This document shows, in pieces, positions 24,917 to 63,667 of a DNA stretch of 64,000 bases. The notes beneath the pieces were generated by a model that had not been told where the DNA came from, searched no databases, and saw only the letters and a list, made by a program, of their open reading frames with translations. Location of the stretch: the NCBI RefSeq assembly GCF_041248615.1, contig NZ_CP158425.1. One strand, given 5' to 3'. The first letter of the stretch is position 1. Each line of letters opens with the position of its first letter. Made by a program: the position numbers and the translations under genes. The stretch comes from Escherichia coli. GTDB lineage: Bacteria; Pseudomonadota; Gammaproteobacteria; Enterobacterales; Enterobacteriaceae.

Positions 24917-24961
24917 CGGCCATGACCGGCATGGCCGTACTCATCAAAAGTGAAAGTAACT

Positions 24962-25771
24962 TTAGGCCCCGCGAGCTTTTTCGATTGCGCCCTGCAAAGT
25001 TGCTGCGTCCATAGCCCCGGGGATAAATGTGGTAGTCGCCGCATTCGGCTTTTTCATATTCATAATGATGAAGCCGGGTGTGCCGGTGATCCCAAGCGCT
25101 TCGCCCAGCTGCATGTTGCCGGAGATCACGTTTTCATATCGGTTTTTTTCCCTGTCAGAAAACGTGCTGTTAAACCCTGACTTATCCACCACAGTATTAA
25201 AGTCGCTGAGTTCGAATTTGCGTTGAGAGGTCATGAAGGTATGAGCCACAGCCATCAGGTTGTTGTGGTATTTACGATAGGCTTCAGCACCGAAATTCTG
25301 ATAGACGTGCAGACCCGTAGCGGCCCCCATGGCAGATACAGGTTTTGAACCGGCAAAAATCGGGAATTCTTTAAAGAAGAATTTTACATCTTTGCTCTGA
25401 TTCATTACCGATTCAACAACAGGTGTAACCCGCATGCAGTAAATACACTGATAGTCGAAGAACTCGATTACCGCGACGTCGGCGTCATCCGGGCCGATGT
25501 TTGGCGTCTCCTTGGTATCCAGCAGAGCTGGCGCATATGGAATTATTCGTTCCACTGAGGCACTTACGTTCTGATTTTCCAGCGCCTTACCTGCTTCCAC
25601 TAAATAATGGGGATTTTTTACCAGGTAAGTAGCGGCAATTTTGCCAATTTCTTCCTCACTGAGCACCTTCGGTTTAAAATAAGTTGCCGCGATTAACGCC
25701 GAGGCAGCGGTAGCAATTACCGCAGAAATTAAAATCGTGGCCATCGGTTTTAAATAAAATTCTTTAGACAT
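24962..25771 (-). CDS. membrane-anchored DsbA-like thiol:disulfide oxidoreductase
   Basis: N-terminal TM segment and a thioredoxin CxxC motif (FFDYQCIYCMRV). Confidence 0.75.
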   Translation of the reverse strand: MSKEFYLKPMATILISAVIATAASALIAATYFKPKVLSEEEIGKIAATYLVKNPHYLVEAGKALENQNVSASVERIIPYAPALLDTKETPNIGPDDADVAVIEFFDYQCIYCMRVTPVVESVMNQSKDVKFFFKEFPIFAGSKPVSAMGAATGLHVYQNFGAEAYRKYHNNLMAVAHTFMTSQRKFELSDFNTVVDKSGFNSTFSDREKNRYENVISGNMQLGEALGITGTPGFIIMNMKKPNAATTTFIPGAMDAATLQGAIEKARGA

Positions 25772-25877
25772 AGCTACCTTTATGCTTTTCAGCCTGTTAG
25801 TTATTAACCTGCGATGGATTATACTGGCCCGGTAAATCGGAATTATTCGTGAAACAATGCTTTTTGGAGATTAAAGG

Positions 25878-26489
25878 ATGATTAGGCAGGGCTTTATACT
25901 CACAACCGCAATGCTTTTGAGTGGTTGTGGATATCATTTCGCAAACCAGGTAGATGCGTACGATCTAATGCCTCGTCCTGTTACAAATAAAAGGTTTCAG
26001 ATAGTCCCTCCGGACGAAAGTATTCAGTCCAGAATGTTTTCAGGCCGTTTTGCTGATGGATTAGCAAAAAAAGGAGTCATTATTTCCACTCACCAGCCAG
26101 ATTATGTGCTCAGGTTCCGAATGAGCAGCTCACAGGAGAACATGCAGTATAGCGAGCAGCTTCTTACTGGGGTGACAGGCTACGTTGTAGATAAAAAGAC
26201 AACGAGAACTGACAAGCATGGCGAATCGCATACTGACTATGACTACAGGCCGGTCGATGGGGTAATAGGCACTGAGACGATGTCGCAGATGCACTATATG
26301 CGACAGCTGGATGTCGAGGTATACCCGTCAGCGAAAGGAGCAAAGCAGGTTCTGAAAGTGAGTATGCAAAGCAATGCACCTGTGCCGTCAGACAGCATTG
26401 CTTATTCAGCAATGATCGACGCCTTTACTGATAAATTTGATGCGCCGCTGCGTTCCGGAAATTATGTTGCAGTGATCCCCTGGAACTGA
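25878..26489 (+). CDS. lipoprotein of unknown function
   Basis: Lipobox LLSGC at residues 13-17. RBS GGAG. Confidence 0.6.
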   Translation: MIRQGFILTTAMLLSGCGYHFANQVDAYDLMPRPVTNKRFQIVPPDESIQSRMFSGRFADGLAKKGVIISTHQPDYVLRFRMSSSQENMQYSEQLLTGVTGYVVDKKTTRTDKHGESHTDYDYRPVDGVIGTETMSQMHYMRQLDVEVYPSAKGAKQVLKVSMQSNAPVPSDSIAYSAMIDAFTDKFDAPLRSGNYVAVIPWN

Positions 26490-26548
26490 AAGCAGACGGC
26501 GGGAAGAGAATGTTCAAAAGTGACTTTTGGACACGCACATAAACGTGG

Positions 26549-26971
26549 CTATCGCCCTCCCCCATTAAAATCATAAAGTCGGTAAAGATCGCCCATCGTG
26601 ATGGAATTGGGCTTATTAATGATTAGATACTGTAACTGTTCTTTATGTTGAGTACTGGCGGCTGCATTCATAAGCACTTCCAGGTAGAACTTGTAGCCTA
26701 TGCTTCGCTCTGAATACATATACTGGAACTGCAACAGTAAAATGCCTGACATAACATACAACAGCAGCAGACTGAGTAACACAGTGCTATCAGGCTGTTC
26801 CAGTGCCATACTGACATACCCTGAACCCAGAATGCACAGAAGCCAACCCGTCATTAGAGCAGGCACCCTACGACTCAGACGTTCATAACAACGTTTTATT
26901 ACGGGATCCCGGAGATACTTTTTGTCAGGTATCCCCGTTGCCCTGATGACGAAGTTACTGAGTATCGACAT
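26549..26971 (-). CDS. small inner-membrane protein (two to three TM segments)
   Basis: 140 aa with a GAAGGAAAAAAG RBS. Size and topology are compatible with an entry-exclusion-type protein, but there is no sequence evidence for that. Confidence 0.5.
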   Translation of the reverse strand: MSILSNFVIRATGIPDKKYLRDPVIKRCYERLSRRVPALMTGWLLCILGSGYVSMALEQPDSTVLLSLLLLYVMSGILLLQFQYMYSERSIGYKFYLEVLMNAAASTQHKEQLQYLIINKPNSITMGDLYRLYDFNGGGR

Positions 26972-27004
26972 CTTTTTTCCTTCTGGACGCTCTCAGTCAA
27001 TAAA

Positions 27005-27397
27005 TCAGGCCAGGCGCTCATTGAAAGCTACCACGAGCTGCGAATCGGGATTTTTTACCAGTTCGGGCCGGATAACTTTTAGTTGCCTCGTTGGGGCGAG
27101 CTCATCTGTAGGCCTGATGGTGGTATTACCCGGCCCCTTGCGGGTACTGTCGGTGTTTACCTTGAGCTTTTTATTTCCCAGGTAGCTTTCCATCTTTTTA
27201 GAGATGGTGTCACCTGTGGTCGCAACACCAGAGAGTTCCTTTAGTTGTTCACCTTGATCCATTTGTACCGATGACATCAGAAATACGATTCCTGGATCGT
27301 TTTCCGTTCCACAGGCTCCGTACTGACATTGTGCAGCGAAAACGGGCTGTACACCTACAGCAACCAGCATTAACGTACTCAGTAAAGTAGATTTCAT
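27005..27397 (-). CDS. small secreted protein
   Basis: MKSTLLSTLMLVAVGVQPVFA signal peptide. AGAGG RBS 5 nt before the ATG at 27397. Confidence 0.55.
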   Translation of the reverse strand: MKSTLLSTLMLVAVGVQPVFAAQCQYGACGTENDPGIVFLMSSVQMDQGEQLKELSGVATTGDTISKKMESYLGNKKLKVNTDSTRKGPGNTTIRPTDELAPTRQLKVIRPELVKNPDSQLVVAFNERLA

Positions 27398-27421
27398 ACA
27401 CACCTCTTACAGTCGGAAAAG

Positions 27422-28171
27422 TTACTTTTGCGCAGCGCCCATTTGGGTCACCAGGTTTTCCGGGCTCAGCCACCCCGTAAATAACTGCGGTTTGCCGCTT
27501 AGTGTCACCATGGTAGGAGTACCTTGCAGCGGGATTGTTGAGGCCACCTGGAAATGCGATTTGATAATGTTTAAGCAAGCCTCATCAGGACGTCCTTCCG
27601 GGATAGTTGAAACCGGATTCATCGCTGCATCCAGAGCTTCGTTTGGCTTTGCTGAACACCAGATTTTGGCCATGTTCCCGGCTACTACCGAGTTCAGTCC
27701 TGCACGTGGGAATGCAAGAAACTTAATCGAAATACCGGCATCAAGATAAGACTTCAGATCATGATGCAGTTTTTGGCAGTATCCACAGGTTATATCGGTA
27801 AAGATAGCAAGCCGGTATTTTTCGTTTGGTGATTTGTAGTCGATGGATTTTGTTTTGGATGCGAATTCCCGGACGCCCATTAAAATGGCCTGCTCAGTGG
27901 TGTTTACCACATCTTTACCTTTCACGTGGAATAAGCTTCCGGTAAAAATGTAATCTCCGTCTTTGCTCACGTAACTTACCCCCTCCCTGGAAATCACCGT
28001 AAAAATATCTTTTACTGGCGAGGGTTCGACGTGCTCGATTGAAAGCCCAATGGCTTTGAGCTTATCCCGGGCTGCATCTGGCAGTACCATTGTATTAACC
28101 GGCTCGGCATTCATCGTGAAGGCGGTACTTAATGAAAGAAGTAATACCGATGCCTTAATAATTTTTTTCAT
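27422..28171 (-). CDS. dsbC: DsbC-like periplasmic disulfide isomerase
   Basis: Signal peptide, an N-terminal dimerisation-like domain and a thioredoxin CGYC motif (DITCGYCQKLH). DsbC homologues are typical of SXT/IncC-type transfer regions. Confidence 0.8.
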   Translation of the reverse strand: MKKIIKASVLLLSLSTAFTMNAEPVNTMVLPDAARDKLKAIGLSIEHVEPSPVKDIFTVISREGVSYVSKDGDYIFTGSLFHVKGKDVVNTTEQAILMGVREFASKTKSIDYKSPNEKYRLAIFTDITCGYCQKLHHDLKSYLDAGISIKFLAFPRAGLNSVVAGNMAKIWCSAKPNEALDAAMNPVSTIPEGRPDEACLNIIKSHFQVASTIPLQGTPTMVTLSGKPQLFTGWLSPENLVTQMGAAQK

Positions 28172-28318
28172 TTATGCTCCTTGAATCGAGCACTAATATT
28201 ATCACGCCCAAAAATTCCAGAATTTTGCTTAAACGCTTAAATCAACGGGTAAAGCCGAAAGAAAGTCGATAGATATATGGGAGAATAGATAAAACGTAGA
28301 TTCAGTGGAGAAATCGTT

Positions 28319-29507: not shown

Positions 29508-29614
29508 ATTAAAGTAACTTTTACGGAGAGCATGCCCGCATTATCAGTTCTATGCTTCTCCATTTCTGCCCCGGGTCAAAGCATTGCACAGTTGGAAGAA
29601 AACATGCCGGTCTC

Positions 29615-35046: not shown

Positions 35047-36462
35047 TCAGTTACGTGTGCCACGAATACTTTCAGTGAAAGCCTTCCGTTGCAGGCGACG
35101 GTTATCCCAGGTTGAAATGACGTCCGAGCTGGTACCGACCTGGCTGTGCGATAGCTCATAGGCGGCTTTAACCTGTTTTGAGAGATTGTCTGTTAATCGG
35201 TTGAGATCATCCCTTTTACCCGACAGCGACTCACTCGGTATGCTCATGGTTGAAATTTTGGCCTCAACCTGGCGCAACATGTTGATTACGAGGCTCGTCG
35301 CAGCAATAGTGCTTATGTCCTGAATGTATGCGTACCCTTCCGGTGCTTCGAATGTTTGCAAAGAGTCGATAATGGTCGGGATGCCGATATAGGAGATAAT
35401 GCGTAATTCATCATCTGAAACACGAACGTCGTTGATGATTTTTTTCTGTACGTTTAAAAGAAGATCAGAAATGGTATCCTTCAATCCCTTAAAACCACCG
35501 TCATTAACTTCTGACATGACAAGGCACTGAGCCTTTCGTGGGGATGATGGATCTGGTGCCGGAGAACACTTGAGCATTTTAATTGATCCGCCAGCTGGTG
35601 GCCCCATGATGTAATCCGTGACAGTCATGGTAGACGGGCGGACTTCCATTCCCGCTTTTTCGCCTTTGCTATCCCAGTTGATAATGACAGTACCCACGAG
35701 AGACATAAGTTGTTCTGCCAATTTATAACCGGATAACTCCGTTACCCCTCCGATGTTCATTGTTCCCTTATCAATATCCATGAACGACATATAGAAGAGG
35801 TTACCACTGAATTTTTCAGCGAACTCTTCGGGATCCTTTGCTTTAACCTGAGAAGTGACAGCTTCAGGTGACTTTGTCATCGATGAGCCAAAATCAGGAA
35901 TGAGACCATTAATCGATCCCAGAATTGAGGCTGGTCCAGAGCTAACTGAGTTAGCGAACTGGCTTGGCGTACCCACGTTTTCAGAAAGGAAAGAGTAAGT
36001 TGCATTGCATGAATCTTTCGCAAATTTATTTAGCGCTTGCAGTTTGTTTTGGATGTCATTAATCGTTGCAGCACAGTCAGCACAAATAGCTGAAACAGCA
36101 ACGTTAAAAGCATAGATAGCCGCACCCTGGGCAATACCACGGGCCACCTGCACAAGCTGGTCCCCGTTGATCATGCTGAAGGACCCAAGAAAAACGTCAA
36201 TACCATTACAACCGACAGAAGCTTTTGGAAACGACATGGAAACAAGGTTGGTATTAACGTTTGTTGTTCGGTAAGACATTGACCCGCCAACTATGCCTGT
36301 ACGGGTTGCTGTGGAAAAGGTGGCCGGGCTGGTAGACGTCATCATGCCATTGAAAATGTTACGCATTGCGTTGTCTGCATTTGCAGTCGGGGCTAAAATT
36401 GCAGCACAAACAGAAAGAGACAAAAGTAACTTTTTGAAGTTGAAAACGGCATTACTGCGCAT
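35047..36462 (-). CDS. traH: F-type T4SS protein TraH
   Basis: Signal peptide MRSNAVFNFKKLLLSLSVCAAILAPTANA. The start at 36462 overlaps the traF stop by 11 nt. Typical TraH size. Confidence 0.8.
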   Translation of the reverse strand: MRSNAVFNFKKLLLSLSVCAAILAPTANADNAMRNIFNGMMTSTSPATFSTATRTGIVGGSMSYRTTNVNTNLVSMSFPKASVGCNGIDVFLGSFSMINGDQLVQVARGIAQGAAIYAFNVAVSAICADCAATINDIQNKLQALNKFAKDSCNATYSFLSENVGTPSQFANSVSSGPASILGSINGLIPDFGSSMTKSPEAVTSQVKAKDPEEFAEKFSGNLFYMSFMDIDKGTMNIGGVTELSGYKLAEQLMSLVGTVIINWDSKGEKAGMEVRPSTMTVTDYIMGPPAGGSIKMLKCSPAPDPSSPRKAQCLVMSEVNDGGFKGLKDTISDLLLNVQKKIINDVRVSDDELRIISYIGIPTIIDSLQTFEAPEGYAYIQDISTIAATSLVINMLRQVEAKISTMSIPSESLSGKRDDLNRLTDNLSKQVKAAYELSHSQVGTSSDVISTWDNRRLQRKAFTESIRGTRN

Positions 36463-38091: not shown

Positions 38092-38604
38092 TTAATCTAA
38101 TTCTTCTTGAGAATACCTCTCTATGGCTGAAGCAGTTGAAGATAATCTGCAACGTGGACAATAAGCATCATTTGTCACTGGCACAATGTATGGGCGTTTA
38201 CATTTTTCGCAGGCACCTAGTTCTTCAATTTCTTTCATAGAAGTAAGGATTTCTATTATTTTATTAACTTCCGGTGCGCATACAAAGTATCCCAGATTAT
38301 GAAGGACACTCATTATTCGGTTGAAGTCAATTTGCCGAAAACTCGCTTCCGGATTTATTGGATCAAAACCAAAATAGTTAACTGCGACATCAATAACAGC
38401 AGAAAAAGCTCGGCGGTTATCTGTGCGTTTGCTCCAGCCCCGGATACCTTTTTTGAGTTTTGTTTTTGCACCAGGCTCAAAATCGATATTTTCAGCAACA
38501 TGATTACCGTACAAAATTCGTATTGTATTTTTATTTGCCCCAAGCGACATAGTCCTTGCTGCTCGCAATAGAGCATTAGCTTTTGTTTGATCGACCTTTG
38601 CCAT
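38092..38604 (-). CDS. FlhC-family transcriptional activator subunit (SetC/AcaC type)
   Basis: 170 aa. C-terminal zinc-ribbon CEKC...CPRC as in FlhC. Sits upstream of traFHG as in SXT/IncC-type elements. Confidence 0.75.
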   Translation of the reverse strand: MAKVDQTKANALLRAARTMSLGANKNTIRILYGNHVAENIDFEPGAKTKLKKGIRGWSKRTDNRRAFSAVIDVAVNYFGFDPINPEASFRQIDFNRIMSVLHNLGYFVCAPEVNKIIEILTSMKEIEELGACEKCKRPYIVPVTNDAYCPRCRLSSTASAIERYSQEELD

Positions 38605-38605
38605 A

Positions 38606-39406
38606 TTAATAATCCTTTAACATAACTTTATTTGTTAAAGTGTTGAACACATCCTGACGGTGACTGGTGAACATAGTGTCATAACGTAATAGTTCCATCA
38701 AATCATCACTAACTTTTCCTAACCGGATGTCAGCAGACAATTCATAAGCCCAGGCAAAAACTTTCGTTTTAAGTGAAACACTCTCTTCAATATGCCCTTG
38801 TGAGAAAGCAATTGTACGTGGGAAAAGAACGACATCGTTAATTGTTTTTAACGATGAATAACCAATGTCTTTAATAGCATCAGCTGTAGTTGGTTTTAAA
38901 CCAAAGAAAACACTTACAAACTCTGGTGCGAGCATTGAGATAAAGAACACCTGCATAAAGTAGTCATTCTGTATATCAACACATTTAGAACGCAACTCAT
39001 GAATCTTCTTGGGATTATAGATATCCACTGTACCATTCAGAAAAGTCACTTTTTCACCGGCATCGTAAATACCATAGTCAATATCATTTGTATCATATTC
39101 ACGAATTACATTGGAATCACCGTCCAAGACCGCAGAAAAAAACCTCTCCCATGTAATTTCCTTTCCGAGTGTACGCGGAACCAAAAAACTACCTGGACGT
39201 GTTTCCACTTCAAAAGCTAAATCAGCGGCTGTACTAAATCCTTTCCCAAATAGGCGACGCTGGAGAAGAGGAGTCCCAGTTTGATATGCAGAAGATCCAT
39301 GCACAGGCAATAACATTAAAAATGCACGGTAACTACGAATAAGCGAAATCTCAGTGCGGAAAAGTTTACCGAGTAAGCTACGAGTTAAATTATCAGATTC
39401 TGACAT
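38606..39406 (-). CDS. putative FlhD-like activator subunit (SetD/AcaD position) with about 140-aa N-terminal extension
   Basis: Stop codon lies 1 nt before the FlhC-like ATG. Residues about 145-210 (YFMQVFFISMLAPEFVSVFFGLKPTTADAIKDIGYSSLKTI) weakly resemble the FlhD helical core. The assignment rests mostly on synteny. Confidence 0.45.
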   Translation of the reverse strand: MSESDNLTRSLLGKLFRTEISLIRSYRAFLMLLPVHGSSAYQTGTPLLQRRLFGKGFSTAADLAFEVETRPGSFLVPRTLGKEITWERFFSAVLDGDSNVIREYDTNDIDYGIYDAGEKVTFLNGTVDIYNPKKIHELRSKCVDIQNDYFMQVFFISMLAPEFVSVFFGLKPTTADAIKDIGYSSLKTINDVVLFPRTIAFSQGHIEESVSLKTKVFAWAYELSADIRLGKVSDDLMELLRYDTMFTSHRQDVFNTLTNKVMLKDY

Positions 39407-39733
39407 GTGCTGATTGTCCTTGCGCCATTACAATTGTTCAAATCTTCAACATGGATTTTTTGTTAGGTGTTCGGTAGGGTGAAAAGTAACTTTTAGTATT
39501 TTCTTAAGGCTTGAATAAGCCTTAAATCTATCCCTTCAACCACACCGCTTACTTGTAACACTTTTTAACCAAACTGACCAGAATTTTATCAAAATTTCTT
39601 CGCATGCTAACGAAATGTGAAGCGATTAAAAAAAAACCTAAATCCAGCCCCTCCCAACGTTGGATTAGAATAACGACGTCTTTCACTGACCGTCATAAAC
39701 TGACATTTTTACTTTTCATCAACCTCATGCTTA

Positions 39734-50593: not shown

Positions 50594-50956
50594 TCAGGGG
50601 TTTAACGCCGGAATATTTTGCCAGGCCTCCTGCAAGGTCTGCAAGACTTCTACAAGTGATAGTGACGGCCACAGGACTGTTTCCGTCATTATCACTCCAG
50701 GTGGCTCGCACTCTACTGGTACCAGAATTAAAACAACACGAGTTCCTTTTACCTGGTAGGCAAGGTTTACTGCCGGTTGGCGGTAGGAGGCCAGTACACC
50801 CTCACCATATTGAGCAGGGTTACTTGCCCAGTTCCGCACCATTGCATACACCTGAGGCATATACCGACTATCCAGATCCCCTTTGGGCCGTCTGAACGGC
50901 ACGATTTCTTCTGAGCGGTAGGTGGTCGTTGTTGTATTGGTTGTCATCTTTGTCAC
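50594..50956 (-). CDS. hypothetical protein
   Basis: 120 aa with a GGGGAGGTG RBS. Confidence 0.55.
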   Translation of the reverse strand: MTKMTTNTTTTTYRSEEIVPFRRPKGDLDSRYMPQVYAMVRNWASNPAQYGEGVLASYRQPAVNLAYQVKGTRVVLILVPVECEPPGVIMTETVLWPSLSLVEVLQTLQEAWQNIPALNP

Positions 50957-51012
50957 CTCCCCTGTTCGTCCATTTAGAGTTTTAAGCTGCTTTACACATC
51001 ACACTCAACTGA

Positions 51013-51297
51013 TTATTTAAGCTGGTCATCGTCTCTGGCCAGCATAGCCCAACCATTCGACTGGTTTTCGCGGGAGTAAGGATTCATTTCAAAATAACTA
51101 TCTACCGCGTCGCTGTCCGCAACAGAACTGTTGTTAGCTCTCTTTGAACCCTGAACCACTACAGCATCAACCTCTGCGGCTTTCCCGTTGCGCTGTACCA
51201 GGATTTTAACCGTCTTGGGCTTACGTCTTGCGAGCAGTTTGTTGGCGATAAAAAGCACAACAATCCAGGCCAAAAGCACGTATAAAAATTTATTCAT
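51013..51297 (-). CDS. small membrane-anchored protein
   Basis: 94 aa with an N-terminal TM helix, AAGGAGGG RBS and a TATAAT-like -10 upstream. Confidence 0.6.
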   Translation of the reverse strand: MNKFLYVLLAWIVVLFIANKLLARRKPKTVKILVQRNGKAAEVDAVVVQGSKRANNSSVADSDAVDSYFEMNPYSRENQSNGWAMLARDDDQLK

Positions 51298-51653
51298 AAT
51301 GCCCTCCTTTGTATGTGATTATTATACCTGCTTCCATTGCAGGCCAAACAGGTTCGGTGTATGAAAAATAGACTTCTCTCCGGCGTATAGCAATCTACTT
51401 ACTGATCTGTTTTCGTATCAAACTGTATGGCATAACCGAGGGGCGTACGTGGTGAGTCAGAAAGTTACTTTTCCGTAATAGTTAATTTCAGATCCTTCTT
51501 CCAGTTACGCTTCAGTATAAAACCGATACCCTCTAATTCAGCATCCTTCACGTTTAATACGCTTCACTTTAAGGCAGGGCTTTTCGGTTGATATGAATTC
51601 TTTTTCCGGTTGCTGGACATGGGTTTCATCCTGATAGTTAAAATTGCAGGCTA

Positions 51654-51956
51654 TCAGTCACCACCACCACCTCCTCCTCCTCCTCCTCCACCGCCACCAT
51701 CACAACCACCAGCTATGCTATTTTCACCATTACAATCACCTCCGAGGGGGTTCAAATGGCTGCTCCCCTGTAGATGGTGTCCTTGCCAGATCGAACCCGA
51801 ACCAGCGCCTCCTGAGCGTCTTTGCTTGCCCTGAGGCAATTGTGCAGGCTCACCAGCACCGGCGGTCCCAAAAATGTCCCGGGCAATTTTATAAAGAAGG
51901 TAAAAAGGTACGCCCAGCATCATAAAAAAGATTACTGAAAATATTACACGTTCCAT
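51654..51956 (-). CDS. small membrane-anchored protein with glycine-rich tail ending in a 13-Gly run
   Basis: AGGAGA RBS. N-terminal TM helix. The C-terminus ...GGCDGGGGGGGGGGGGGD is encoded by (GGT/GGC/GGA)13. Confidence 0.55.
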   Translation of the reverse strand: MERVIFSVIFFMMLGVPFYLLYKIARDIFGTAGAGEPAQLPQGKQRRSGGAGSGSIWQGHHLQGSSHLNPLGGDCNGENSIAGGCDGGGGGGGGGGGGGD

Positions 51957-52388
51957 TGATGATCTCCTGTCTTGTGAGAGACCAGTTATATCAGGGTGAT
52001 TCAGTATTTCCGTTTAGAAAAGAGTACTAATTTGGCCCTGTTCGATCTTAATTTGCCATCCGGGAAAAAGTCATAGGGATAGGCCTGCCAGAGTCAATAA
52101 CTTCCAGTGATCTGGAGGAGACCCCGGCTCTCTGAGCCCTCATGGATGGTACGGCTTTACCCCCTGTAAACAGATTCACGTTCCGCAGGACAAACATCGA
52201 CTACTGACGTCTCATATTTGCTGACGCTAATCCGACGTCTCATTGCCGTCTGCTTGTTTTCTTTAAAGGGTGTATTAGACGAATATCAAATCGGAATGGT
52301 AGGGGATGTGTGGGCACCATGCCCGGCCCTCTTTGAGCATCTGAGAGATTGGAGACCTAGCCGGGTAAGATAGCTACTTTCTTACGGG

Positions 52389-52757
52389 TTACCCTTCAAA
52401 TCCAAAGACGAAACGGACGCTGCCGTTCTCCACGTGGAGACGCTTTACTTCTTCGACAAATTCCTGGATCACCTCTCCGGCGTTATCGGGTGGTATGGCT
52501 GACAAAATTTCTTCCGAAGTCAGCCATGAGTATGAATGTTCACCGAATAAATCATCATCTTCGGACGGTATATCATCAGGTAATCCGCGTAATGCGTGGA
52601 TAAAAACTGCTGATGTGCTCGCCCTTTCACGATCTACATCAAATCCGAGCCAGGCAAAGTGGAGATATGATCGGTCCCCTTTATAATTGCTTGATAAATT
52701 AATCCATTTACCAGGCTTTTCTTCCCTTTGAAATCGCCAGCAGATATCAACGCCCAT
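52389..52757 (-). CDS. hypothetical protein
   Basis: 122 aa with a GGAG RBS. Confidence 0.55.
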   Translation of the reverse strand: MGVDICWRFQREEKPGKWINLSSNYKGDRSYLHFAWLGFDVDRERASTSAVFIHALRGLPDDIPSEDDDLFGEHSYSWLTSEEILSAIPPDNAGEVIQEFVEEVKRLHVENGSVRFVFGFEG

Positions 52758-52921
52758 TAAGAAACTCCATTACTATCGTTCGTATGAGATAACTATCATT
52801 TCAGAATACTATGACTTCTTCCCGTATAGAACTAATCGCTCACGCCAACTGGGCGAAGCCAACCGGTTCCGCCACTTCGCTCATTGGTTTTTAGGCGTAA
52901 GCACTGAAGCCAGTCTCCATG

Positions 52922-53464
52922 CTAACTGGCGAGCCTGCGAAAGTCAGACTCGTTGTTATAAAGCGGCATATCGTAAGCGGTGTCTGAAATGAACATGCGG
53001 ATCTGCTCAAGCGTCATGCCACAATGAAAACGGTTTACGCTCACATTGGCCCGGGGGAAGTCAGCACAAAACGCATTCAAAACATTTTCATGGACAATGC
53101 CAATGTTGATCAACGCAGCTGGCCCGTTGTCACGGAAGGATACGACACGGAATCCCCCATACCAGCCTGAATGGGAGAAAAATGAAAATGCGCCGGATGC
53201 CAGACCATTAGACAGGTCATAGCGCAATTTCCCGCACAGAGACTGGCTGTCTTTGCTGTACACGCGATTAATGAAAATACCGGGACCAACTTCTACCGGC
53301 TGCTTGTTGCTTGCTAAACACGGAAAGCCCACCAGCGAAACCTCCCTTTCTCCTGACCAGTTTACCTGATACCCGGCAGTGAGAAAGTCCGTCAGTTCTA
53401 CGCCAGAAAGAGCATTAATGGCCGCGATATCGGTAGTCAAAATATTTACGTTTTTCATATTCAT
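52922..53464 (-). CDS. hypothetical protein
   Basis: 180-aa ORF with a weak RBS. Confidence 0.5.
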   Translation of the reverse strand: MNMKNVNILTTDIAAINALSGVELTDFLTAGYQVNWSGEREVSLVGFPCLASNKQPVEVGPGIFINRVYSKDSQSLCGKLRYDLSNGLASGAFSFFSHSGWYGGFRVVSFRDNGPAALINIGIVHENVLNAFCADFPRANVSVNRFHCGMTLEQIRMFISDTAYDMPLYNNESDFRRLAS

Positions 53465-53525
53465 CTCATCTTTATTCTAAAGTGCGTTTTTTGTCTATCA
53501 GCCCGAGGATTGAAAATTTGAATAT

Positions 53526-53963
53526 TTAATGTGACAGATAAATACCTGTCACTTTTTCAAAAACAGCCTGTAATTGAATATCGAGAGAGTTCATTTTAAA
53601 ATCCACCAGCTCACCTTTATTATCGCAAACCAAATAAAAATAGGAGTCAAATGCGTCTGTATCTTCATCTTTAAAAATACGGAAGGAATTAATTTTATCA
53701 TGCCCTTCAAATTCGGCATGAATACCATAGCGAACCGAGCCGTCATCGAACTGAACAACCCGTCGTACAGAATTAATCCGGACGTACTGTTTTAAGGCCC
53801 TCGCGAAATCGGCATTTAACGCCAACGCTCGTAAGATTGAATCAGCGGTTTCATTCTGCTTTTTACGATCGTATTCAAATATCCCACAGCCGGTGTTACG
53901 AAAGACCGGCTGAAGAGCATTAACCAGGTTGAAGGAATCCACGTTTCTGTCGTTTCTGTACAT
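53526..53963 (-). CDS. hypothetical protein
   Basis: 145 aa with an AGGAGA RBS. Confidence 0.55.
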   Translation of the reverse strand: MYRNDRNVDSFNLVNALQPVFRNTGCGIFEYDRKKQNETADSILRALALNADFARALKQYVRINSVRRVVQFDDGSVRYGIHAEFEGHDKINSFRIFKDEDTDAFDSYFYLVCDNKGELVDFKMNSLDIQLQAVFEKVTGIYLSH

Positions 53964-54007
53964 GAGATATCTCCTGCCCCTCCGCTATACGAAGGGGCTT
54001 GATAGGG

Positions 54008-54304
54008 TTACTGCCAGGCTGCGATCACTTCTTCGCACTGGAAATGAGATAAGCACTGCTGGAGTAGAAGAGCCAGCACCGCTGTGTTAGGGACGCGATT
54101 GTTACACCACGCGTTGAAAAGCAGCTGCCATGGACCGGCATAATACCCGGCCAGTTTCTTTTTTTGTTTAGCTGTACGGCAGCGGGAAATGGCCTGCTGA
54201 TAAAGGCTTTCATTCTCATCACCAGCCCGTTTTTGCAGAGTGCGATAAATATACGAATAAAGACTGTCAGAACAGTTTGAAGCGTACGCCAGTTGTTTTT
54301 TCAT
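54008..54304 (-). CDS. hypothetical protein
   Basis: 98 aa with an AGGAGG RBS. Confidence 0.55.
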   Translation of the reverse strand: MKKQLAYASNCSDSLYSYIYRTLQKRAGDENESLYQQAISRCRTAKQKKKLAGYYAGPWQLLFNAWCNNRVPNTAVLALLLQQCLSHFQCEEVIAAWQ

Positions 54305-54424
54305 AATACCTCCTGTTTAGAAGTATTATATGTAAACAGCCTCAGCGGCTAATAACCCGTAGCAATATAATTTGCATTTTTTCTATTTCTGAAGACGCTT
54401 TTTAAATTAATATTTACTGAGTTA

Positions 54425-54703
54425 TCACAACTTATTATTCTTCCCGTCTGCTGTTTTATTAATCCCCCAGTTAGTAATCACGCCAAGTCGGCGCAATTTT
54501 TCACGTTGTTCATAAATAAAAAAATCGCCAAGGCAGTCTTTTAAAACTTCACTATCCTGATATTTTATTTTTTGAAGCATCCTCGCAACTATGGCGCGTT
54601 TCAGGAATATGGCTGCATCAGACTCAAGCATTTGTGAGGACTGTCTGACGGTCTCCTGCATGTCGACGATACTGCTGAGCTTTCGTCTGACCACGCTTAG
54701 CAT
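54425..54703 (-). CDS. hypothetical protein
   Basis: 92-aa ORF with no convincing RBS. Confidence 0.35.
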   Translation of the reverse strand: MLSVVRRKLSSIVDMQETVRQSSQMLESDAAIFLKRAIVARMLQKIKYQDSEVLKDCLGDFFIYEQREKLRRLGVITNWGINKTADGKNNKL

Positions 54704-54887
54704 AGTGTCCGGGAACCGCTTAGCGGCTGAATGTAACCCGCAACAACGTTACGCATTGTTTTACTCACTGCAATTTTCCATTTAAGTCTGTTTGTTCCAC
54801 CAGCTGCTAACATCAGCGTTATTCATCCTGAGGTTTCGCCCGCGATTGACAGATCAGAGGCAGCATGGATGAAATTGCCAGAGTAGA

Positions 54888-55169
54888 TCACTGCATACGC
54901 GAATAGTGGTTTGTATTCAGTTCTGCGTTTGCCTGCTTTTCCAGTGCTGTCATAACCCGGCGGAGCATCGCCAGAGCCTGAACAGGCGAGCTCCCAAACT
55001 GCACTTTCACTTCAGCCGTATCATGATCCTGAATCAGGTCGAGTATATTCACTTCGATCCCTGCCCCGTTTTCATCTTTTGCCGTGCACTGAATACTTAC
55101 CCGGGTCACCGAATCCGTCAGGACTGGCAGTGGGTTAGTTTTGTCTACGTTGATAACAGCCTTCTTCAT
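54888..55169 (-). CDS. hypothetical protein
   Basis: 93 aa with an AAGGGGA RBS, directly downstream of the parB-like terminator. Confidence 0.5.
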   Translation of the reverse strand: MKKAVINVDKTNPLPVLTDSVTRVSIQCTAKDENGAGIEVNILDLIQDHDTAEVKVQFGSSPVQALAMLRRVMTALEKQANAELNTNHYSRMQ

Positions 55170-55234: not shown

Positions 55235-56419
55235 TCATGACTGTCCCTTGTTCATCTTATCAGCATGCTTACGCAGGTACTCTTTCAGGTCAGCATGAGC
55301 GTTGATGATATCGTTCATTTCATCATTGGTCAGAACAAGCGTGTAAGTATCAGTACTGACAGATTCACCTTCTTTAAGCTTGGCTTCTTCAGCAATACGT
55401 TCAAAAATCGGGATCGCGGTGTCTGCAATGACGGTCACAGTCTTTTTGTTCAGAACGCTGGACATGGAAGGTGCTTTACCTGCCGGGTTCTGTTTAGGAG
55501 CGCTGTCCTTTGGAGCTGGAGCCGGTTCCTGTACCGGTGGCGTATCCAGCGTCTCCGTATTGCTTTCATCGTTCAGTTGATCCGGTACCGGGGTGTTATC
55601 GGTAGTATCATCTGCCGGTTGCTCAGCACCGATGTTTTCCGGAGTCTGCGGATCTGCCATGCGCTCTTCTACCTTGGCAGCTTTGACGAATTTCAGCGTG
55701 TTTTTCGTCGCCTTGCCATAGATGGAGATCGCTTTGTTGATGTTATCTACCGCATCCTCACCGCTGTACATATACTCGTCCAGTGCAACGTACATGCTCA
55801 CCTGATCGCTCACAAGCATGGTCTGTAGTTCAGAAGGCAGGTCCAGTACGCGAACCATCTGGCGAAGATGCTGCTCTGATTTACCACGTTTTTTTGCCAG
55901 TTCCGCAAAGGTCTTAGGCTCTTCTTTATCTTCAACCAGACGCTTAATTGAAAGCGCTTCAGCTACGACAGACAGCGCCAGGTTGGAGTTGCCGGTCAGG
56001 GTGAAGAGTTCTGCTTTTGAAGCGCTACCGCGAAACTCTTCGCAGCGAATACGAGTAATGCGTTCACGCCCTTCTGCTTCCAGCTGGCGGTTTGCAATAG
56101 CGATGGAACGGATACGGCAAGCCCCCTGACGCAGTACAGGTACGCCATTAACCATCTGAACAACGATAGGCGTCACGCTGAACGGGTCTTCCATGTAGGC
56201 ATCGGCCAGGCTGTTCAGGTGTTCCACAACGTGAGGCATTGAATAGTAGAGCTCGCCCATACCGGCCGTGCGGGTGTTAAAGCCTTCCTGCTCTACAACA
56301 ACCGAAGGGTCAATGATAAGGCCGTTGCCTTTACGGGCACCGTTACCAGTGCGTTCCAGGTAACCACGAAGGCTGATTTCGTTGCTGTTGTTTTTTACTT
56401 CAGTTTCGATTGCGGACAT
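55235..56419 (-). CDS. ParB/KorB-like DNA-binding protein (orphan, no adjacent ParA)
   Basis: 394 aa. ParB N-terminal-domain-like region (LIIDPSVVVEQEGFNTRT ... LRQGACRIRSIAIA), an HTH region (KTFAELAKKRGKSEQHLRQMVRVLDLPSELQ) and an acidic/proline-rich linker. Confidence 0.7.
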   Translation of the reverse strand: MSAIETEVKNNSNEISLRGYLERTGNGARKGNGLIIDPSVVVEQEGFNTRTAGMGELYYSMPHVVEHLNSLADAYMEDPFSVTPIVVQMVNGVPVLRQGACRIRSIAIANRQLEAEGRERITRIRCEEFRGSASKAELFTLTGNSNLALSVVAEALSIKRLVEDKEEPKTFAELAKKRGKSEQHLRQMVRVLDLPSELQTMLVSDQVSMYVALDEYMYSGEDAVDNINKAISIYGKATKNTLKFVKAAKVEERMADPQTPENIGAEQPADDTTDNTPVPDQLNDESNTETLDTPPVQEPAPAPKDSAPKQNPAGKAPSMSSVLNKKTVTVIADTAIPIFERIAEEAKLKEGESVSTDTYTLVLTNDEMNDIINAHADLKEYLRKHADKMNKGQS

Positions 56420-56834
56420 TTTTGTTCTCTTTTTTGGTTGGTTGTTTAACTGCGCTACAACACAACAATACCAGGTTCGACATTTTTCCTAATAGGTTGC
56501 GGAGAAGAAAAAGTAACTTTTTTTAAAAATTTTCCTGAGGCAATACTACTCGATCCGTCCGTTTTAAATCTTCACAACAGTGGGCCGTTTTTACGTTTAA
56601 GCAAAATAACTGGTTCAGAAGGTGACTCAGAGAGAAAAGTTACTTTTCCGGTTGTCTGGGCCAGTGATGGGAGAGTGGCAGGACAGGAATGGCTAAACCG
56701 GTGCGGGTCTCTTGTAAGTCGCAGGGGATTCAGGAGATATAGAGGTAAACTGGTACGTTCAGTTTTTGGATTGAGCCGGGCTTTTGGCCCGGGCTTAAGG
56801 AAGCAGAAATTTGAACGAACTGGCAGGTAATGCT

Positions 56835-57520: not shown

Positions 57521-58465
57521 ATGAAACTTTCCCGTCAGACGACTTCTGATACTTCTGTTGATGGCCGTTCACGCGCATATGCCTGGGGCCGTGTCCATTA
57601 TTTCATTATCGAACATGCACCAATGGCTGAGCTGGTCGCTATTGACGAGCTGCTGGAAAAAGCTGGCTGGAGCAATGACGGCTGTCCGAACTATGAGAAA
57701 GATGACGAGTTTGGTAATGCTGGTTACAGCTGTGGTTACTGGATCGATATTGACAGCGTGGGAAGCTTCAAGGCTGACTACAAACGTCTTAAGGGGGAGA
57801 TTAGTGCGCATATCGCCTCAAAGGCGGCAGAGGTGGAGATCCGCGTACTGGACTCGATGTCCGACAAAGAATGTAAAGATGTTGCCTCGGTGGCATCTAC
57901 TGTTCGCCGTGACTTACGTACGCAGTCCGAATCGCTTCATTCACTGCGTACAATCGTAACGGTTGATCATTACAATCCCTATGTGACCACCAGCCGCCCG
58001 CTGAGCATTTCCGCCTGGACACTTATCCACGACTGTCTGAAAACAGGCACCATCAATGACGTCTGTTCACGGTTGAGTTCATTAATCCTGCACTCTGAAG
58101 CCGCGATTGCCCGTTGTAAGGGAAGCTCCGACTACTCTTCGGAACACGCTCAGCTATCGTTTTTTGCTGGTAACGACTATGTCACCAGACGCACCCTTGT
58201 TGATGCAGCTCACGAAGAGGCTCTGCGAATGAACCGCCGCTTTGATGAACGCATTGCAATGAACGCGGATTCTGATGCCAGAAGGCTCCAGTGCGAATTC
58301 AACCTTAGCAACCATGTCGTACAGCGTAGGACCGTTGAATCTGCTCATATCCAGGCACTCAATGAAGACGTCACCCGTTCACAGGCGGAACCACGCTGCC
58401 CTGGAAAGCTTCTTCTGAATATGACCAGTCATGAGGAAGTGCGGGACTCACTGAGCGCCTGTTAG
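57521..58465 (+). CDS. hypothetical protein
   Basis: 314 aa with a GGAG RBS. TTGACA-like -35 at 57429-57434. Confidence 0.55.
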   Translation: MKLSRQTTSDTSVDGRSRAYAWGRVHYFIIEHAPMAELVAIDELLEKAGWSNDGCPNYEKDDEFGNAGYSCGYWIDIDSVGSFKADYKRLKGEISAHIASKAAEVEIRVLDSMSDKECKDVASVASTVRRDLRTQSESLHSLRTIVTVDHYNPYVTTSRPLSISAWTLIHDCLKTGTINDVCSRLSSLILHSEAAIARCKGSSDYSSEHAQLSFFAGNDYVTRRTLVDAAHEEALRMNRRFDERIAMNADSDARRLQCEFNLSNHVVQRRTVESAHIQALNEDVTRSQAEPRCPGKLLLNMTSHEEVRDSLSAC

Positions 58466-58561
58466 TCCAGCGACACCCCCTGCGGCTCTACTACCGGGCC
58501 GCAGTCTGCTCCTGCCCAGATGGTGCCAGTGGTGTAATGAATTTGTTTAATAAGGCTAAGT

Positions 58562-59164
58562 ATGATGAATAAAGAACAACTAATCGACAAACTGGAACGC
58601 GTGGTATGTGGTCAGTACTCCTACGAAATGCAGGAGCTTGCGTATTCGGCCCTCTGCTGCATTAAAGGCACCCCGGACGACTGCGCTAAGTTCCCTGTTA
58701 CGCGTCCGCTGCCTGACACCTTAGTGGACGTATGGGACGAAATCGGGCAATACCTTGGCACAGGCAAAGCCATTGAAACTCGCAGTTGCGGCGTTTCGCT
58801 TCTGCTTCATGGACACTGCTACGATTCAAATCATGTGCTTTACTGGCGCAATGCTGGCGCACTTCCAGCAGCTTGCGATACGCCACTGGCTGGTGGGTCT
58901 CGCAAACTGTTCACCTGCTCAGCCTGTGGAGTGGACGGTCTGGATGAACCACCTGAAACCAGTTGCCACTGCTGCACAGAGGGGGCCCACTGGGTTGAGA
59001 GCAGGCTCTTCACCTCCGGGCAGGCAGACCCTGAAGAATTTAGACCCGTGGCGGTCGTGAAAGAGTGTGCAGGCTCAACGCCGGATGATCGGCTCATCTG
59101 GAGTGTGATTGAACAGCTCAACGGCGAACTGGCGGAAGGCGATAAACTATTTAAGCGACGCTGA
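58562..59164 (+). CDS. cysteine-rich hypothetical protein
   Basis: 200-aa ORF containing many Cys, including CSACGVDG...CHCC. Confidence 0.5.
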   Translation: MMNKEQLIDKLERVVCGQYSYEMQELAYSALCCIKGTPDDCAKFPVTRPLPDTLVDVWDEIGQYLGTGKAIETRSCGVSLLLHGHCYDSNHVLYWRNAGALPAACDTPLAGGSRKLFTCSACGVDGLDEPPETSCHCCTEGAHWVESRLFTSGQADPEEFRPVAVVKECAGSTPDDRLIWSVIEQLNGELAEGDKLFKRR

Positions 59165-59217
59165 CAGATCACGGCAGCATTTATAACAGACGAACTCCAG
59201 AATAATTTAAAGCAACC

Positions 59218-59574
59218 ATGAACATGAAAAAGCCCAAAGCTGCATTACAGAATGCCATGAAAGAAGATGTGCCAGCTGTGACACAGATTCAGATGCGATC
59301 TACGGTTTCCAGAAAGGTTCGCTATGTAAAACAGGCAAATCGAGAGGGTCTGAAATTATCTGAGTGGATGTCGCGGCATCTCGACGCTGTCTGTGATACC
59401 GCAGATGAGATTCATAAAGGCAAACGCTCAACTCCGGTTGCGCCTGGGAAGATTCCCCCAGAGGTATACCAGGTGATATACGATCAGTGCGGCGGGTTCG
59501 TGGAGTGTGATGCTAATGCCCAGGTTATCTGGGAAGCCTGCCGTAATGCCATTCTTAACGGAGACAAAGGGTAA
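59218..59574 (+). CDS. putative ribbon-helix-helix DNA-binding protein
   Basis: The N-terminal segment QIQMRSTVSRKVRYVKQANREGLKLSEWMSRHLDAV resembles a CopG/Arc RHH fold pattern. Confidence 0.45.
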   Translation: MNMKKPKAALQNAMKEDVPAVTQIQMRSTVSRKVRYVKQANREGLKLSEWMSRHLDAVCDTADEIHKGKRSTPVAPGKIPPEVYQVIYDQCGGFVECDANAQVIWEACRNAILNGDKG

Positions 59575-61575: not shown

Positions 61576-61857
61576 TTACTCTTTTTCCTGCATAGCGGCT
61601 TTTTCAGCCCGGGTGGCCAGGCGAGCATTTCCGAAAGGTTCACGGACAAGCAGGGGCTTCTCCTTCTTCCAGCCCCTGATAGCCGTTTCTCCAAAACGAC
61701 GTGGTGCATTGCCGTTCCAGCGAGCAATCACATGATTATCATGAATTTCTATAATGACAACGGGGTGGACAATGACCGTTGTAATGGTGGTATTTCCCAT
61801 TTTGGTACGGGTTACAGACCAAACCTGCATCCCGGATTCCAGCTGGCTGATTTTCAT
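61576..61857 (-). CDS. hypothetical protein
   Basis: 93 aa with an AAGGA RBS. Confidence 0.55.
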   Translation of the reverse strand: MKISQLESGMQVWSVTRTKMGNTTITTVIVHPVVIIEIHDNHVIARWNGNAPRRFGETAIRGWKKEKPLLVREPFGNARLATRAEKAAMQEKE

Positions 61858-62178: not shown

Positions 62179-62231
62179 CAAGTCACCTTTTTAATATTTT
62201 TAATGGCAAGATACTTCCCTAACACATTGTT

Positions 62232-62543: not shown

Positions 62544-62765
62544 GATTAACTCTCCAGATTATGTGGAATCATTATAACAACTGGCATCCCGCCACAAATA
62601 ACCTGAGAAAAATTCTTTGAAATATTCCTATATATAAGGAATTACAGTCGGAAAAGAAACGATGAAATAGCGCCGACCGCTTAAAATCGATAAATTAAAA
62701 TGGACGGCACTGGAATGAAAAACTGAAAGTAGTAAGACCGTAATTATCCTTCACGGATGTAAGCT

Positions 62766-62966
62766 TTATAAGAGGAGTACTGGCAAAGCTTTGCCAAGTA
62801 CTTCGGCGGTTGTGTCTACGATTTTACGGATGTCATCGATCTGCGAAGGCTTATTCAACACCACCGTAAAAAGCTCTCCTTCGTTATCAGCCTGCTCGCA
62901 GTTTCCGTATCGGCTCCCGTCGTACAGCTGCACAATACGTGACATAGAAGACTTTGTTTGTTTCAT
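62766..62966 (-). CDS. small hypothetical protein, paralogue of 63006-63230
   Basis: 66 aa with an AGGTG RBS. Confidence 0.5.
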   Translation of the reverse strand: MKQTKSSMSRIVQLYDGSRYGNCEQADNEGELFTVVLNKPSQIDDIRKIVDTTAEVLGKALPVLLL

Positions 62967-63005
62967 GGCTTTGCACCTGCTTTTAGGCAGTTTGGTTACT
63001 GGTTA

Positions 63006-63230
63006 TCAGAAGCTGGTTTCATGCGCTTCCGGCTGGGACACGAACTGGTATTTGACGCCGCCAGGCACACCTACTGCTTCGGCAATAGAGTCGCAAAGCC
63101 GCGATAAATCATTTAGTGTCATCGGATATTCAATATCTACAGAATATAAAGCACCTGCATTTTCAGCATCTTCGATGTTTTTATACTGGGCACTAAATAT
63201 AGCAATGGTCTGAATTTCGTGGTTATGCAT
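63006..63230 (-). CDS. small hypothetical protein, paralogue of 62766-62966
   Basis: 74 aa with an AAGGA RBS. Confidence 0.5.
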   Translation of the reverse strand: MHNHEIQTIAIFSAQYKNIEDAENAGALYSVDIEYPMTLNDLSRLCDSIAEAVGVPGGVKYQFVSQPEAHETSF

Positions 63231-63251
63231 GAACCGGTCCTTATTAAATTA

Positions 63252-63276
63252 TAAAAGCCACCCGAGAGTGGCCTGA
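63252..63276 (-). terminator. probable terminator after the 67-aa membrane-protein gene
   Basis: Stem GCCAC/GTGGC followed on the minus strand by TTTTAT. Confidence 0.45.
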
Positions 63277-63284
63277 GTTGAAAC

Positions 63285-63488
63285 TTAAATCTGTGAAGTA
63301 TTTTTGAGAGATTTTTTGCGATCCAGATGCCGGGCAACAATGGTTCCGATAACAAGTAGCATGATGACCGCACTGAAGAAGGTGCTGTCAGGGACGCCCT
63401 GGAAAAAATCACTGAAACTGTAAACAATAAAAATCAATGCGCAAAAATAGAAAACGATACGAACATAAGGGGTAAAAAACATTTTCAT
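63285..63488 (-). CDS. small two-TM membrane protein
   Basis: 67 aa, very hydrophobic, with a GGAAGG RBS. Confidence 0.5.
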   Translation of the reverse strand: MKMFFTPYVRIVFYFCALIFIVYSFSDFFQGVPDSTFFSAVIMLLVIGTIVARHLDRKKSLKNTSQI

Positions 63489-63667
63489 CGGTTGCCTTCC
63501 ATTCAGGGAGAATTCTCAGTAATTACATCACACCTGAAGAGAAACTATTTTCGTATAAATGAGCATTTTCGACATATCAGAGGGGGGGTTTACTCATAAA
63601 TGAGGTAGTAAGGGTCACACTTGAGGTGAAAGTTACTTTCCTGGCTGCGAACGAACTATCTCAAATG

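Follow-up and report, generated by a model that had tools for sequence, protein, structure and literature searches.

A 13-bp dyad dispersed over the backbone of IncHI plasmids as the candidate binding site of an orphan ParB/KorB-fold protein

The KorB protein of the IncP-1 plasmid RK2 is a global repressor that works as a CTP-dependent sliding clamp and has 12 OB sites; its domain order is an N-terminal domain, a DNA-binding domain, a flexible linker and a C-terminal domain (PMC11790492). For IncC plasmids, a published study describes a ParB that binds 14 dispersed parS inverted repeats, as seen in electrophoretic mobility shift assays (PMC10954446). Here we analysed a stretch of 64,000 nucleotides from Escherichia coli (NCBI RefSeq assembly GCF_041248615.1, contig NZ_CP158425.1), hereafter the window, which holds a resistance mosaic and, beyond it, IncHI plasmid backbone. 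The backbone carries many copies of a 13-bp palindrome, AAAAGT-N-ACTTTT (the dyad), and a gene for an orphan protein of 394 amino acids (aa) with a ParB/KorB fold, at 55235-56419 on the minus strand. We consider it probable that the dyad, as (G)AAAAGT-W-ACTTTT(C), is the binding site of a dimeric plasmid protein, for which this 394-aa protein is the most likely candidate.

IncHI1 plasmids carry multidrug resistance in Salmonella Typhi, IncHI2 plasmids carry mcr-1 and many further resistance genes in E. coli, Salmonella and Enterobacter, and IncHI1B-type plasmids carry NDM-1 in Klebsiella. To our knowledge, the regulation described for IncHI plasmids (H-NS/Hha, TrhR/TrhY, HtdA) includes no plasmid-wide sequence-specific factor. 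Full-text searches of the open literature on the motif, IncHI/R27/R478 regulation, ParB-like/KorB proteins and ChIP-seq, and a reading of papers on R27, which leave subscription-only papers outside, turned up no account of the dyad or of a function for the 394-aa protein.

An exact pattern search with the core AAAGTNACTTT returned 15 sites in the window, against a chance expectation of 0.08 (100 dinucleotide shuffles, with a largest count of 1). The longer form of the dyad is AAAAGTNACTTTT. A first-pass annotation, made by eye, had listed 14 copies and expected far fewer than one by chance; its expectation and all 14 of its coordinates were right, and the copy that it missed lies within trhR. 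The centre base was A in seven, T in five, C in two and G in one of the sites, so that the earlier tally was correct for A/T and G and one short for C. As also stated there, the resistance mosaic (positions 1 to ~20,700) was free of dyads, and the first site of the window starts at 24953. Scanning the window at one mismatch gave no additional copy, so the ten specified bases are all-or-none in the window; AAAAGTNACTTTT at up to two mismatches had a single extra match, which is at chance level. Two degenerate copies that had been proposed at 60636 and 62641 did not hold up. One amounts to a half-site; what the other shares is 15 nt of flank, a length which by our estimate, not a computation, is expected by chance in 64 kb.

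For whole-plasmid counts we used the IncHI2 plasmid p14408_M1 of E. coli (NZ_LT599829.1; 238,073 bp; IncHI2A, MOBH, MPF_F), which carries mcr-1.1 and is identical to the window at 128001-192000. It had 51 exact dyads, where a 3rd-order Markov model predicts 0.56, and the IncHI1 plasmid R27 had 46. Among all palindromes with 5-6-bp arms and gaps of 0-4, the dyad was the single outlier in both plasmids, the runner-up of the same 5-N1-5 geometry having eight copies in p14408_M1 and four in R27. The first-pass annotation had placed the motif on the transfer backbone. The 51 copies instead span all backbone modules, including both Tra regions, both partition regions and the replication regions; there are also copies upstream of hns, in the Tus-like gene and in genes for Ig-like proteins, and the ter region has two. 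The density was ~1 dyad per 3.8 kb of IncHI backbone, and the spacing was slightly more even than random (coefficient of variation 0.76 vs 0.97, P about 0.03). No dyad was found in 42 kb of accessory DNA borne on insertion sequences or integrons, in 150 kb of the E. coli K-12 chromosome sampled from three regions, or, as AAAGTNACTTT, in 40 kb of an IncC plasmid. By these controls the dyad is element-specific, as the first pass had suspected, rather than host-wide.

The centre was A or T in 86-91% of sites. In the flank, position -6 favours A (65-74%) and position -7 favours G (38-51%); this bias is real but weak, and it accounts for what is true of a shared ACTTTTCCG flank reported in the first pass. 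Beyond +/-8 bp we found no flank information around the sites, so the unit is a free-standing dyad of 13-15 bp and not a piece of a longer repeat. One-mismatch neighbours were in modest excess on the whole plasmids, mostly with the innermost half-site base T changed to C or G.

A reading in which the dyad marks no protein-binding network at all seems very improbable to us; the copies would then be an artefact of base composition, be left over from a short mobile repeat, or serve as targets of a host factor or of restriction-modification or methylation. The backbone is indeed AT-rich (37-48% GC), but both the shuffles and the Markov model predict less than one copy and rule out chance or composition as the origin of the dyad. 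The lack of flank information argues against a transposable repeat, and the dyad-free chromosomal sample makes a host factor unlikely. From general knowledge, a stem of 5 bp closed by a 1-nt loop is unable to form a hairpin in RNA or DNA. IncHI plasmids encode several orphan methyltransferases and HNH nucleases, yet over-represented 10-base sites that are kept in position are, again from general knowledge, unlike the targets of restriction or methylation.

Conservation in relatives, which had been proposed as a check on the motif, was high. R27 could be aligned to 23 of the IncHI2 sites, with a local identity of 65-81% (about 72%). The dyad was exact at the orthologous position in 21 of them, or in 22 when the trhH site, displaced by an alignment gap, is counted; the one remaining site was substituted. 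By our arithmetic, all ten bases would survive by chance in about 4% of cases at ~72% identity. The centre base, in contrast to the arms, changes freely between IncHI2 and R27. Intragenic sites are among those kept, and the pair within traD is 1730 bp apart in IncHI2 and R27 alike. Going by the annotation coordinates, no two of the three window sites inside mobH and traD share a reading frame, so the constraint acts on the DNA and not on the peptide. These alignments indicate strong purifying selection on the dyad at the DNA level, and we are confident in predicting that it is a conserved, IncHI-specific protein-binding site.

The sites are not placed evenly with respect to genes. In p14408_M1, 28 of the 51 were intergenic, while only 20% of the backbone is non-coding (P = 3.7e-8). 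By our reading of the annotation, about 22 of these 28 precede a start codon by 21-310 bp, and four are at convergent junctions. The other 23 sites are intragenic, and many sites are outside the tra regions.

The candidate binder has an N-terminal ParB-type domain (aa ~17-142), a ParB helix-turn-helix (HTH; aa 149-255), an acidic and proline-rich disordered linker (aa 255-323) and a C-terminal two-helix domain. Pfam HTH_ParB matched aa 149-209 with 26.6 bits (cut-off 22.6), and a profile search of the PDB matched chains of Caulobacter ParB and Spo0J. An AlphaFold2 model built with 15 homologs had a predicted local distance difference test score of ~90 over aa 17-255, and a conserved C-terminal block (aa ~325-390) was modelled as two helices at low confidence. 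Against the PDB, Foldseek placed the RK2 KorB-KorA-DNA complex on top (8qa9, E 2e-8), followed by Myxococcus ParB-CTPgS, Noc-NBS (7ol9, E 1e-7) and Caulobacter ParB. The fold alignments to KorB, ParB and Noc comprised 216-236 columns and both domains, at E 2e-8 to 1e-7. The Pfam models ParB_N and KorB (PF08535) did not match the 394-aa protein; the IncC partition ParB, by comparison, scored 130.8 bits on PF08535.

Two paralogs of the protein are encoded on p14408_M1, with 32% and 26% identity to it, and an orphan ParB of IncC plasmids is 32% identical over aa 29-230. The recognition helices of paralogs 2 and 3 differ from that of the 394-aa protein. Only GFNxR, RxGxxR and one Asn are invariant in a comparison of the IncC orphan homolog with all three IncHI paralogs; the 394-aa protein has them as GFNTR, RQGACRIR and GN, and we take these to be the positions of ParB Boxes I, II and III. 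Their invariance suggests a conserved nucleotide pocket, and nucleotide binding by the 394-aa protein is plausible. The protein is not a strict member of the KorB family, but it plausibly works like KorB.

The dyad and the gene are linked across lineages. We compared seven, in which the protein is 98% (IncHI2-type), 65% (R27), 64% (Pseudocitrobacter), 50% (Leclercia-type), 48% (Buttiauxella), 44% (Yersinia) and 35% (Klebsiella pKP100_NDM1) identical to the 394-aa protein. The same dyad was present in all of them, with 4-12 copies per 21-41 kb, or two in the case of a 15-kb locus at a contig end. Within 900 bp upstream of the ParB-like gene there were two dyads in the IncHI2-type, R27, Buttiauxella and Yersinia lineages, three in Pseudocitrobacter, one in the Leclercia-type and six in Klebsiella, which contrasts with the background density given above. 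A proximal site ~91-121 bp before the ATG was found in six of the seven lineages, and a site at about -210 to -340 in all seven. The ParB-like gene was the only neighbour of this site cluster conserved in all lineages. In the window the two copies start at 56510 (56510-56520, proximal) and 56636 (56636-56646, distal), 126 bp apart as first described, and 91 and 217 bp upstream of the gene.

When the regions ahead of the gene are aligned, two conserved elements come after the proximal dyad, first a TTAGGA block and then a TATTGT-type element, lying 16 and 39 nt, respectively, downstream of the 3' end of the site at 56510 in our reading of the alignment. We read TTAGGA as a candidate -35 and the TATTGT-type element as a candidate -10, which would put the dyad centre near -60. 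A scan for the promoter consensus upstream of the gene returned nothing on the minus strand, and the -35/-10 call comes from cross-lineage conservation alone. A comparable site also precedes paralog 2 (232168-233331, minus), as seen by comparing its upstream regions in IncHI2 (L005 41332-41700) and R27 (L006 44832-45190). Here a near-cognate dyad, AAAAAGTACCTTTTT, is kept in both plasmids at -93/-97 from the ATG, the distance of the proximal site from the 394-aa gene. This suggests that autoregulation from such a position may be a family habit of the ParB-like paralogs. Upstream of paralog 3 (236542-237597, minus), p14408_M1 and R27 shared no palindrome, and neither paralog 2 nor paralog 3 had an exact dyad upstream of its own gene.

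Several points weigh against the 394-aa protein as the binder or against its action as a KorB-like clamp. The plasmids compared share the whole IncHI backbone, so co-occurrence cannot single out this protein, and it is the upstream clustering alone that ties the dyad to it. We searched for a diverged dyad accompanying diverged homologs, by tblastn against PLSDB and among the contigs encoding them; the dyad was identical down to 35% protein identity, and the scan of genome contigs for diverged homologs returned close relatives only. As the dyad is invariant across lineages, protein-DNA covariation is uninformative. The recognition helix of the Klebsiella ortholog is partly different (SVTHVRK vs SEQHLRQ), while its dyad is the same. 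Box II is divergent, with QGACRIR in place of GERRxRA and a Cys replacing the first Arg; because of this and of the missing ParB_N match, CTP binding is uncertain. Confidence in the model of the C-terminal domain is low, and near the gene we identified neither a ParA nor a KorA-like partner. Finally, the proximal dyad lies upstream of the putative -35, a position that fits activation as well as repression.

It is quite unlikely, in our judgement, that another protein of the IncHI backbone binds the dyad and the 394-aa gene is merely one of its targets. Such a protein could be one of the ParB-like paralogs, TrhR/TrhY, HtdA or a small uncharacterised repressor. The shared backbone would make its co-occurrence with the dyad just as complete, dyads precede trhR and several tra operons, both paralogs have an HTH_ParB domain, and small HTH or ribbon-helix-helix repressors such as KorA also typically recognise short perfect dyads. 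Against this, the sites extend far beyond the tra regions, to the Tus-like gene, hns, the ter region and the Ig-like protein genes. The two paralogs have different recognition helices and no exact site upstream, and there is no exact dyad upstream of htdA. TrhR and TrhY have no recognisable DNA-binding or FlhDC domain. No small gene beside the site cluster is conserved across lineages, and small neighbouring genes were rejected as KorA-like binders, none being conserved in this way and none having a Pfam domain.

An activator of the FlhDC type was considered separately, since the first pass had labelled TrhR/TrhY as FlhD/FlhC-like. Searches at the sequence level with the 266-aa and 170-aa proteins encoded at 38092-39406 (minus) gave no match in Pfam or NCBIfam and none to FlhC/FlhD in the PDB, and the label has no support at that level. 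The 23 of 51 sites that are intragenic, the many sites outside the tra regions and the lack of sequence-level FlhC/FlhD similarity argue against a tra-specific activator of this type as the binder.

An unlikely but weightier alternative keeps the ParB-like protein as the binder and changes its task. The sites would be dispersed parS centromeres for partition or compaction of a plasmid that is large and low in copy number, perhaps together with the Par1 ParA acting in trans, and transcription would not be the main role. The dispersed inverted repeats described for the IncC ParB (PMC10954446) provide a precedent. Many IncHI sites are intragenic or lie where genes converge, positions that do not readily suggest an operator, and their spacing is slightly evener than random. 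By our own comparison, not a computation, a conserved N-terminal RKGNGL resembles the ParA-interacting peptides of ParB proteins. Against partition, the 394-aa gene has no adjoining ParA gene, its neighbours being small hypothetical genes, and the plasmid is already equipped with two complete modules for partition: Par1, with a P1-type ParB and a repeat array, and the ParM-based Par2. No dyad was found near the parA promoter. A role connected with promoters is suggested by the intergenic enrichment and by the constant distances from start codons. The Par1 ParB itself was discarded as the binder, as it is P1-type (Pfam PF08775) and has its own 249-bp repeat array, with no dyad near parA.

The Par1 array consists of 12.6 tandem copies of the 249-bp unit (12504-15594 in the coordinates of the IncHI2 record) and fills the unannotated stretch that separates trhC from parA/parB of Par1. 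Probably it serves Par1 as its centromere or incompatibility array. Two of the units each hold a one-mismatch neighbour of the dyad, AAAGTCACATT. In R27, 43-bp iterons adjoin RepHI1A (L006 38377-39006), and three consecutive units contain AAAAGGCACTTTT, which is one mismatch from the dyad. This likeness could reflect a cross-talk of the replication iterons with the dyad-binding protein, or a coincidence.

Returning to the KorB-fold protein as the binder, which we hold with moderate confidence to be the most likely one, the following mechanism can be proposed. A dimer of the 394-aa protein would occupy, through its ParB-type HTH, ~50 sites across the IncHI backbone. Its own operon would be autoregulated through the two conserved upstream sites. 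From the remaining sites the protein would act on neighbouring DNA; about half of them are 20-300 bp upstream of genes, such as trhR, the mobI-relaxase operon, parM, the trhA region and hns, and the rest are within genes or at the ends of operons. By analogy with KorB, an NTP-dependent clamp would close and slide, and so could reach promoters at a distance. Transfer and maintenance genes may thereby be co-ordinated, probably silenced, across the whole plasmid, and the plasmid itself possibly compacted or segregated. We infer that the role of the loaded clamp is transcriptional co-ordination, DNA organisation or both; the NTP switch would follow the KorB example, and the sign and the targets of the regulation are presumed.

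A more far-reaching version is doubtful. Here the 394-aa protein would be an NTP-switched clamp that loads at ~50 evenly spread dyads, coating the whole ancestral IncHI backbone and sparing newly acquired resistance DNA. It would mark 'self' as a plasmid-specific layer of chromatin and set the programme of transfer and maintenance with or against the H-NS/Hha that the plasmid itself encodes. If so, the temperature sensitivity of conjugation that characterises IncH plasmids (R27 literature) could belong to this programme. The layer might act right after entry into the recipient, and the two paralogs, with near-cognate or different sites, could add further layers.

In the window, the IncHI backbone beyond the mosaic comprises umuDC, the Tra1 region (trhH, trhR/trhY, mobI, mobH/traI, traD) and a long run of small hypothetical genes, headed by the 394-aa gene. 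The placements given in the first pass agreed with the RefSeq annotation throughout, including three convergent junctions, four copies within genes of the Tra1 region and the sites ahead of trhR, the relaxase operon and the genes starting at 51297 and 63488. The first site, gAAAGTAACTTTa (24953-24963), is at the convergent junction between the stops of umuC and a DsbA-family gene, and is exact at the orthologous R27 position ~122053-122063. The second, AAAAGTGACTTTT (26517-26527), is at the convergent junction of two small hypothetical genes, where the flanks cannot be aligned to R27. The third, GGAAAAGTTACTTTTg (27418-27428), lies 21 bp upstream of the start of the gene 27005-27397 (minus) and overlaps the stop of a thioredoxin-fold gene; it is kept in R27 at ~119599, with the centre T changed to C. 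The fourth (29511-29521) is 4 nt past the stop of a HAD-domain gene, which converges with an HNH-endonuclease gene.

The fifth site (36423-36433) is within trhH, at ~codons 10-13, and is exact at the orthologous R27 position 111899. Within trhR, the sixth, AAAAGTCACTTTT (39042-39052), is kept in R27 at 109261, with the centre C changed to T. The seventh (39483-39493) is 77 bp upstream of the ATG of the 266-aa gene, annotated as trhR in other records, in the divergent trhR-mobI region, and is kept in R27 at 108821. The eighth (39968-39978) is ~190 bp upstream of the operon of mobI, whose product has a MobI Pfam match, and the relaxase; its region is presumably oriT, by analogy with IncA/C and SXT. 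This site is inside a 23-bp dyad (39962-39984), which is present as first reported but is imperfect, with one mismatched pair, and whose extension beyond the core is not kept in R27. R27 has a dyad at 108336, 187 bp upstream of its mobI, with flanks that did not align.

Further along, the ninth site (43391-43401) is within the mobH/traI relaxase gene and outside the R27 alignment coverage. The tenth (44829-44839), within traD, and the eleventh (46559-46569), near the 3' end of traD, are both kept in R27. Two more sites complete the set with the pair at the ParB-like gene: one (51461-51471) is intergenic, 164 bp upstream of the gene 51013-51297 (minus), and the last (63629-63639) is 141 bp upstream of the gene 63285-63488 (minus).

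At least ten consecutive small genes on either side of the ParB-like gene, at 50594-55169 (minus) and 57521-59574 (plus), belong to no Pfam family. Of these, three (98, 145 and 180 aa) show conservation in several lineages of the IncHI-like type, at a distance of 3-8 kb from the ParB-like gene. A 93-aa hypothetical gene at 61576-61857 carries the PLSDB resistance label 'Brucella suis mprF' at 100% identity, which looks like a database artefact. In the Klebsiella plasmid pKP100_NDM1 (L010 15001-41224), a second abundant palindrome, GC-rich and of the form CCCCCG-N4-CGGGGG, has 13 copies, eight of which read CCCGCA|TGCGGG. It has no relation to the AT-rich dyad and may be REP-like.

A conserved array of ~50 sites tied to a KorB-fold protein would point to a missing global layer of control or organisation in IncHI plasmids. 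One gene and one 13-bp sequence would offer a handle on their transfer, stability and silencing. It would also be a second, evolutionarily distant case of the KorB-type logic of many loading sites plus a clamp, uncoupled from ParA, and bears on how ParB-fold proteins are repurposed on mobile elements.

Other orphan ParB-fold HTH proteins of mobile elements also control transcription by loading onto DNA, namely BisD, the long-distance activator of ICEclc, VirB, the anti-silencer of Shigella pINV, and HerB/YfjB, which reprogrammes the host from the F leading region. BisD and VirB, both activators, have one or a few loading sites on their element, and HerB binds the host chromosome without a defined motif; none has ~50 perfect dyads on its own replicon. 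Noc of Bacillus subtilis resembles the IncHI protein as a member of the ParB family without a ParA, with many dispersed palindromic sites that are absent from one part of the replicon, and it is among the fold matches. However, Noc is chromosomal, with ~70 NBS sites, and uses an amphipathic helix at its N-terminus to anchor DNA at the membrane, whereas the IncHI protein is plasmid-borne, and none of the features that we analysed in it or its surroundings relates to division control.

IncC plasmids belong to a related MOBH/MPF_F conjugative family, and likewise have a short dispersed inverted repeat with a copy at the promoter of the binder's own operon. In 40 kb of the IncC plasmid pNDM-M21015 we found seven copies of (A)CTTTCACATGTGAAAG(T), at 290, 3874, 4333, 9648, 12984, 24028 and 27443, one of them ~50 bp upstream of parA. 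This palindrome appears to be the published dispersed IncC parS, which is described as a 22-bp inverted repeat with the 14-bp core TTTCACATGTGAAA and a copy at the parA promoter. The IncHI dyad is different, and none is near the IncHI parA. The protein that binds in IncC, the ParB of the parA-parB-053 partition operon, clearly contains the Pfam domains KorB and ParB_N, unlike the IncHI protein, which has neither and is closer to the separate IncC orphan ParB. We tried this orphan homolog as a negative or variant control and rejected it, as the 40 kb of IncC DNA lacks AAAGTNACTTT and its dispersed palindrome appears to be the published parS instead.

The first pass had compared the dyad to KorB/OB of RK2/RP4, and much of this likeness stands. 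Both motifs are 13-bp perfect palindromes with a free centre base. They are spread over the backbone at a similar density (RK2 is about 60 kb in size), in promoter-proximal, distal and intragenic positions and upstream of the operon of their ParB-like protein. The 394-aa protein has the KorB domain order, and KorB is its best structural match in the PDB. The two systems differ in the letters of the site (AAAAGTNACTTTT vs TTTAGCSGCTAAA for the RK2 OB) and in the number of sites, ~50 being about four times more than in RK2. Sequence identity is ~18% in the fold alignment, and neither the Pfam domains nor Box II follow KorB. Unlike korB, the 394-aa gene is outside any ParA (incC)-korB operon, we identified no partner of the KorA or TrbA kind and no further operator motif, and there are three paralogs per plasmid. 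KorB with its 12 OB sites is nevertheless the closest functional analogue of the IncHI array; within a related plasmid family, that place goes to the IncC ParB and its parS.

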